Shown piece after piece: positions 34,400-34,866 of a stretch of 64,000 bases of DNA; the first letter of the stretch is position 1, and each line of letters begins with the position of its first letter. The notes below the pieces were generated by a model. That model did no database searches. It was not told where the DNA came from and saw only the letters and a list, made by a program, of their open reading frames with translations. The translations under genes and the position numbers were made by a program. Origin of the DNA: Octopus vulgaris (lineage: Eukaryota); assembly GCA_951406725.2 (NCBI GenBank), contig OX597836.1:4712001-4776000 (forward strand). Direction: 5' to 3'.

Positions 34400-34783
34400 A
34401 TTTCTTTTATTTGTTTTAGTCATTTGTTTGCGGTCATGCTGCAGCACCGATTTTACCCGAACAAAATCGACCCCATGACTTATTCTTTGTAAGCCTAGTA
34501 CTTATTCTATCGGTCTTTGTTGACGAACCACTTAGTTGCGGGGATACGGGGACGTAAACACACCAGCGGGGGATAAACACAAACACTCAAATACACACAC
34601 ACACACACACTCGCACACATCACACACATATACATATATACGGCGGGTTTCTTTCAGTTTCCGTCCACCAAATCCATTCGCAAAGCTTTATCATCCCTAG
34701 GCACTTGCCTAAGGTGCCACGCAGAAGTACTGAACTCGGAACCATGTGGTTGGTAAGCAAGCTACATACCACACAGCCACGCA
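34400..34783 (-). mobile_element. SINE family A, moderately diverged
   Basis: Collinear family A motifs. Confidence 0.9.
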
Positions 34784-34866
34784 TATAGATCGGTTAGTTT
34801 CAGCTTTCGCCGTGACTTCGTCAGTGGGATTGGCCGACACGGCTAATTCCGGACGACGATCAATAT
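34783..34866 (-). ncRNA. Candidate type III hammerhead ribozyme
   Basis: Minus strand: AUAUUGAUCG-UC-GUC / stem I CGGAAUUAGCC-GUGUC-GGCCAAUCCCA / CUGACGA / stem II AGU-CACGGCGAAA-GCU / GAAAC-UAAC-CGAUCUAUAU. Confidence 0.7.

Follow-up and report, generated by a model that had tools for sequence, protein, structure and literature searches.

The window, a 64,000-nucleotide stretch of the Octopus vulgaris contig OX597836.1, has a GC content of 30-46% and is rich in microsatellites and SINE-like repeats. A hammerhead motif lies on its minus strand, between a TA/TG microsatellite and a SINE-like repeat, within a truncated copy of a low-copy repeat. The features of the locus and of a distant relative elsewhere in the window are located as follows.

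34921..35039, no strand assigned: TA/TG microsatellite on the 5′ side of the motif.
34788..34920, minus strand: truncated copy of the low-copy repeat, cut at both ends, with loose ends of related contigs at 34788 and 34920.
34852..34854, minus strand: GUC of the type III register, the cut site originally proposed and a likely decoy.
34841..34862, minus strand: upstream substrate-like strand, which pairs with both 34825-34835 and 34788-34792.
34834..34838, minus strand: GUCGG, 5′ side of the helix that closes type I stem I; the partner strand is absent from the window copy.
34825..34829, minus strand: stem I arm UCCCA, forming 5/5 pairs with the downstream strand of the relatives and 3/5 with the upstream strand.
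34818..34824, minus strand: core CUGAnGA, where N7 is C in the window copy and A in 8/8 related contigs.
34802..34817, minus strand: stem-loop II, with 3 bp and a 10-nt loop.
34797..34801, minus strand: GAAAC, from G12 to C15.2, where G12 is A in the likely orthologue (run X5, record 18).
34788..34796, minus strand: U15.3 and loop III of the type I fold, also pairing with the upstream strand.
34783..34787, minus strand: TA filler at the break point, outside the family sequence; three of four X5 contigs depart from the window sequence at 34788.
34400..34781, minus strand: SINE-like repeat standing where the 3′ part of the element would be, its far end approximate.
9341..9668, plus strand: distant relative, a TA-flanked 328-bp element made of a 268-bp unit and a 60-bp terminal repeat, with no intact core.

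The repeat at 34400-34781 is presumably a SINE, and part of it (34702-34780) has nine further matches in the window with E below 1e-8. On the other side, the AT-rich sequence that other copies possess beyond 34920 indicates that the family extends further 5′ than the window copy; this sequence, found in the loose ends of the contigs behind 34920, is related among them and also resembles 9390-9415. The 5′ part of the copy contains short palindromes at 34903-34918 and 34882-34897. Among the 99 window frames of at least 110 aa, whose translations were read, none was recognised as a reverse transcriptase with a GIY-YIG domain.

All core letters of a hammerhead are present, and the preliminary description, which took the motif for a full-size type III ribozyme, placed them correctly: GUC at 34854-52, CUGACGA at 34824-18 and GAAAC at 34801-797. 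The sequence also bears out its 11-bp hairpin (34851-34825, eight pairs and three A.C/C.A mismatches), its 3-bp stem II (A-U, G-C, U-G) and its outer helix with 9/10 positions paired. NUH, closed stem I, core, closed stem II and GAAA follow each other in the order of type III (RF00008). In this register the inner stem III has 2 bp, with U.C at the third position, the innermost stem I pair C1.1.A2.1 (34851/34825) is a mismatch, and a second mismatch, A.C, occurs at 34848/34828. Two features that define RF00008 are missing. A paired N1.1-N2.1 with a stem I continuous at the junction is found neither in the window copy nor in its relatives, and a conserved contact between loops 1 and 2 is likewise not seen, although a non-canonical contact is possible. 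For this reason 34788-34920 is not classed as type III. The proposed pseudoknot between these loops stands as a 6-bp complementarity (GCCGUG/CACGGC) and fails as a family contact: stem I already engages three of its six bases (GCC), so that 3 bp remain, and 34839, the middle one of the three unpaired bases, is private to the window copy, differing in 8/8 covering contigs, while 34840 and 34842 also vary. In the general sense the motif is a hammerhead, with CUGAnGA, GAAA and NUH around three helices, the type I helices being formed with the strand of the relatives.

A type III descriptor, written to fit the window hit, matches once in the window and in 4/400 block-shuffled windows (3/400 with the outer helix), which is beyond chance for a single window and not decisive at genome scale. 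Since about 1% of shuffled windows match, several hundred chance matches would be expected in a multi-gigabase genome, so that relatives are needed. The Rfam scan suggested earlier gives no hammerhead match in the window; this blank is uninformative, because at E 0.01 the same scan left 7/7 phage hammerhead-shaped control loci without any family match.

Relatives come from four of 24 runs aligned on 34770-34935 at 80% likeness, namely X1 and X3 (organism A), X5 (organism B) and X12 (organism E), and all of them are DNA contigs. The 23 aligned contigs (6, 9, 5 and 3 from X1, X3, X5 and X12) have 80-95% identity to the window copy, all below 95%. Their differences were taken from the 22 that were listed; a record filter omits some contigs, and any copy number is a lower bound. 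Moreover, X1 and X3 are probably views of one set of loci, and the contigs are not independent copies. Taken together, the contigs suggest that each genome has a few copies at 80-95% similarity. Family-specific patterns have no match in viral contigs, metagenome contigs or prokaryotic genomes.

The family letters are more canonical than those of the window copy. Position 10.1 is G in 7/8 related contigs, with a gap in the eighth, and A in the window copy; position 11.1 is C in 3/8. The pair 10.1-11.1 is therefore G-C in three contigs, G-U in four to five and A-U in the window copy, supporting the stem II register of the preliminary description. No tandem units, tandem 68-mers included, are found at the 34788-34920 locus. 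Positions 34851, 34848, 34828 and 34825 have no change listed in any aligned contig, although the listing may omit differences close to the ends of aligned pieces, and X1 record 2 has two that it does not account for. Of the three mismatches, two, including the innermost pair, are therefore family traits rather than signs of a slightly decayed copy. In addition, the outer AUAU/AUAU part of the proposed closing stem III is not family sequence, since 34863 and 34865 differ in 11/12 contigs and 34783-87 is TA filler.

One contig, X5 record 18, continues together with the window into the SINE, with the same break point and the same letters at 34863 and 34865. The common break point and SINE junction, together with these two letters, make it the likely orthologue. 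It carries G12 -> A, and its stem II is broken; the core is thus not conserved at this site, the orthology being deduced from the break point. G12 is the general base (PMC12192606). Two further copies have C3 -> U in their loose ends, one of them also G8 -> U, and these changed cores suggest that the family may be largely dead. A C3-G8 swap is described as tolerated only if compensated (PMC9901934, PMC3088659). The idea of an intronic function is not borne out either, given the altered G12 of the likely orthologue and the 31-aa peptide of the candidate exon at 32104-32201, for which no relatives were found. This candidate exon lies on the minus strand, has AG and GT borders and contains one open frame. 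Another group of contigs, X1 record 5 and X3 record 16 (aligned to 34872-34920), represents a more diverged subfamily of organism A, in which a 14-nt tandem duplication replaces the upstream strand, still ending in GUC-CG.

The relatives supply what the window copy lacks. At the 3′ edge, three of four X5 contigs (records 19, 20 and 21) extend 69, 182 and 100 letters past 34788, and their common continuation gives a 30-letter consensus with an agreement of 0.88. This downstream strand is the majority string of three contigs from one run, organism B, and single copies differ from it; the contigs of organism A end at 34796. Read on the minus strand, the consensus starts with A-GUC-UGGGA and places its GUC in register. 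It closes type I stem III at 3/3 positions (A-U, C-G, U-A) and type I stem I at 5/5 positions with 34825-34829. Beyond stem I, an internal loop is followed by a second 5-bp helix formed with GUCGG (34838-34), the duplex amounting to -13.2 kcal/mol. The same test is passed by 39/200,000 random 30-mers from the window and by 102/200,000 shuffles, a chance of 2-5 in 10,000, and the continuation of the window copy itself fails it. The type I arrangement, with NUH and the 3′ strand of stem I downstream of GAAA and a closed stem III, is thus found in the family and not in the window copy, and neither the downstream-strand motif nor the motif of the third subfamily has any match in the window. The window copy is consequently not full-size, as it lacks the downstream cut-site strand of the family, and type III is not supported as the working form. 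What the relatives do uphold is the suggestion of an unannotated, small, retrozyme-like element carrying a hammerhead core. The layout is that of animal hammerheads (PMC4209133, PMC7229834), which are mostly type I (PMC7229834, PMC7761336). The sequences of the relatives also allow a possible contact between loop II and the 3′ tail, ACGG with CCGU. We rejected another possible stem II, GGC-GAAA-GCU, in which an insert following A9 would pair with loop I: relatives have G directly after A9, and their loop pairing is broken.

The upstream strand is, to judge from the aligned contigs, not an accident of the window copy. Positions 34848-34862 have no listed change in aligned contigs from three organisms, though the way the aligner seeds its matches accounts for part of this invariance, and two transitions occur nearby in one loose end. 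The UC-CG motif is kept in two more distant lineages, in the loose end of X1 record 5 and at 9481-9485. Within the upstream hairpin, the pair 34845-34831 is C-G in X1 record 1 and X5 record 19, U-G in X5 record 20, U-A in the window and broken in X5 record 18; the hairpin is weaker in one subfamily, as seen in the loose ends of X5 record 22 and X12 record 7. With the core held fixed and with thresholds fitted to the hit, 33/100,000 shuffles and 35/100,000 random 40-mers give the hairpin, the outer helix and the in-register triplet. The two helices alone are given by 743 shuffles and 357 random 40-mers (each of 100,000), so that, once both helices exist, the triplet adds a factor of 0.04-0.1 (33/743; 35/357). 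Pairing of the upstream strand with the arm 34825-35 yields -7.0 kcal/mol, and pairing of the downstream strand with the arm extended to 34839 yields -11.4 kcal/mol. Both strands have GAUC, GUC and GGAAU in common, in that order, a likeness that may reflect either a duplication or two answers to one pairing need. In a full copy, substrate-like strands would stand on both sides of a single core, separated by 68 nt, and that on the upstream side would be mismatched at the cut.

The 84-mer containing the motif folds with z = -2.79, into a form that buries the core. In the predicted fold 34852-56 pairs with 34818-22, covering the core, and the active junction accounts for 1.3e-11 of the ensemble. 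The 17 distinct phage type I motifs used as controls and treated alike have a median P(active) of 0.37 and a minimum of 0.002; all these fold energies leave out tertiary contacts. The core-burying pairing uses the C at N7, which is private to the window copy. Without the downstream GUC of the family, no activity is predicted for the window copy, and the locus is most likely a dead fragment. It serves as a warning for motif scans, in which truncated type I elements may be mistaken for type III ribozymes.

A motif from the loose ends matched 9437-9452 and thereby revealed the distant relative at 9341-9668. This element has a 60-bp terminal direct repeat, 75% alike, and TTAA at its start and end. 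Its alignment with 34919-34823 scores 68, a value reached by 0/2000 shuffles (best 53.5), and is the best of 764 tiles, the next scoring 55; at 4/5 sites checked it has the letter of the relatives. In the upstream register it carries AUC-CG, whose first two pairs would be C-G and G-C, and a GUC stands 50 nt past CUGA. No Rfam match was obtained for 9341-9668. Being longer than one unit, it could stem from reverse transcription of a circular template or be a partial tandem of the Penelope type. The repeats of animal retrozymes measure 150-450 bp (PMC7229834), and the size of the octopus element, a 268-bp unit with 60 bp of redundancy, is in line with them. A long hairpin lies at about 9505-9545.

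We favour, with reservations, the reading that the fuller copies act as type I ribozymes within a repeat of the retrozyme or Penelope-dependent kind, that their upstream strand serves as a lock, and that the window copy has lost the downstream strand and is drifting. In the transcript of a full copy, both arms of the core would at first be paired with the upstream strand; with C.A mismatched at the cut site, little or no cutting would occur in this state, and the downstream GUC would be covered. The downstream strand, pairing better (-11.4 vs -7.0 kcal/mol), would then displace the upstream strand, and cleavage would follow. The unit-length RNA would close into a circle and serve as template for a Penelope-like reverse transcriptase, which would return it to the genome in the manner proposed for non-LTR retrozymes. 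In the window copy the downstream strand would have been lost at the SINE junction. Several points weigh against the lock. Its downstream strand is known from the 30-letter majority string of three contigs of organism B, cores are altered in two further copies, an intact core is missing from the 9341 relative, and the locus shows no tandem array. In the majority of animal retrozyme circles the ribozyme is predicted to be unblocked (PMC7229834). Moreover, the upstream register is itself improbable by chance, and the UC-CG kept in two distant lineages is not needed by a mere lock.

These last observations speak for one core making two cuts, to which we give a small chance. Here the upstream GUC would be cut first, in the type III form and while the downstream strand was yet to be made; once the 5′ piece had left, the better-paired downstream strand would take over, and its type I cut would release a closed hammerhead of 68 nt that could circularise. 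Both registers exceed chance, 34848-34862 shows no listed change across three organisms, UC-CG persists in the two distant lineages, where the 9341 copy would even pair C-G and G-C, and the mismatches would ease displacement of the upstream arm. However, every copy seen has the C1.1.A2.1 mismatch and a 2-bp inner stem III, and a mismatch beside the cut (pair 1.1-2.1) slows cleavage strongly. The in-register triplet adds only its factor of 0.04-0.1 once the helices are given, tandem 68-mers are absent from the locus, and part of the invariance is seeding bias. Two-sided cutting by one natural core in an animal genomic repeat, or a living intermediate between two circular permutations, is thus a long shot. 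Alternatively, the upstream strand may be a relic without a present role, left by an old duplication of the substrate strand or by an ancestral type III cut site that the type I strand replaced, which we regard as unlikely, if a somewhat better candidate than two cuts. The shared GAUC, GUC and GGAAU, in the same order, would follow from such an origin, as would the weakened hairpin of one subfamily (X5 record 22 and X12 record 7). The upstream part is also older than the intact core, being common to the 9341 element. On the other hand, the hairpin stays paired through the changes at 34845-34831, which hints at selection, albeit in few independent copies. The original view of an active or nearly active type III ribozyme with a loop1-loop2 pseudoknot, possibly intronic, is now very improbable. 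It draws on the complete core letters, the rarity of the descriptor in shuffles, the supported stem II register and the frequency of stem I-stem II pseudoknots in natural hammerheads (PMC3088659). It is contradicted by the private pseudoknot base (8/8), the ancestral mismatches, an outer stem made partly of filler, the predicted misfold, the orthologue-like contig without G12 and the candidate exon peptide without relatives. A chance resemblance within a hairpin-rich, DNA-transposon-like repeat is scarcely credible: the palindromes of the 5′ part, the coreless 9341 relative and the Rfam blank would agree with it, but the relatives have a core more canonical than that of the window copy and supply a full type I strand.

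Compared with the animal non-LTR retrozymes (PMC7229834), the octopus family has the same type I order, short stem III, and internal loop with a closing helix in stem I, and likewise consists of dispersed, low-GC monomers whose unit, 268 bp long in the distant relative, spans a few hundred bp. It differs in its 5-bp stem I and 8-nt loop III, as against 6 bp and a 2-4-nt palindrome, and in being low-copy, with no tandem array at the locus and known from DNA contigs. Particularly, the ribozyme is predicted to be free in most animal retrozyme circles, some mussel ones excepted (PMC7229834), whereas the octopus upstream strand pairs both arms in register. With the hammerheads of Penelope-like element pLTRs (PMC4209133) the family has in common type I, solo dispersed copies, G10.1-C11.1 and TA-microsatellite surroundings, a bias described for the Naiad and Neptune elements (PMC8557442). 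Unlike them, it has no extra base between A9 and G10.1, a short instead of a long stem II and a real stem III, and no reverse transcriptase frame was recognised near the locus among the window frames read. The upstream register has the type III order of plant LTR retrozymes and viroids (RF00008; PMC7229834, PMC6155905). In those circles a complementary strand blocks the ribozyme (PMC7229834, PMC6155905), whereas the octopus blocking strand would instead mimic the substrate; in addition, the innermost stem I pair of the octopus family is mismatched in all copies, and no loop-loop contact is conserved. A type I pattern search found seven viral and 25 metagenome loci (L001-L032) with 17 distinct motifs. 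These marine motifs share the UCCCA / GUC-UGGGA signature of stem I because the search pattern required it; their stems II and III are longer, and homology does not extend outside the pattern (best BLAST E 0.058). Judged by their sequences, they are not relatives of the octopus family, and they were used as fold controls. In several of them loop II is complementary to the 3′ tail.

Animal repeats with type I hammerheads are already known, and the octopus family with its two-register core is new as far as we could find. The literature searched, mostly open-access papers, yielded no octopus hammerhead family and no two-register core, though supplementary material, chiefly that of PMC7229834, might change this picture. 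The giant squid genome has 235 annotated Hammerhead_1 loci (PMC6962438), and animal retrozymes, often dispersed monomers, are proposed to originate from Penelope-like elements (bioRxiv 10.64898/2026.07.22.740005). The non-circular permutations described in PMC10085705 have an arrangement different from the two-register core. Blocking strands are known in plant retrozymes and viroids and are said, in PMC7229834, to be absent from most animal circles; how these circles avoid cutting themselves is named there as an open question. A substrate-mimicking lock beside the core would be one answer. If instead both sites were cut, the family would provide a natural hammerhead with one core and two sites, showing how permuted forms interconvert.

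Two other hammerhead-like motifs occur in the window. The one at 1597-1630 (plus strand), CUGAUGA ... GAAAC GUU, is of the minimal Penelope type and lies inside a short repeat; it has no Rfam match and is missed by the relaxed type I scan. At 37420-37620, a TA-flanked repeat of about 200 bp carries a decayed minimal hammerhead on the plus strand, with its core at 37487, composed of CCGACGA, an extra A, a 4-bp stem II, GAAA, GUU and a 4-bp stem I.
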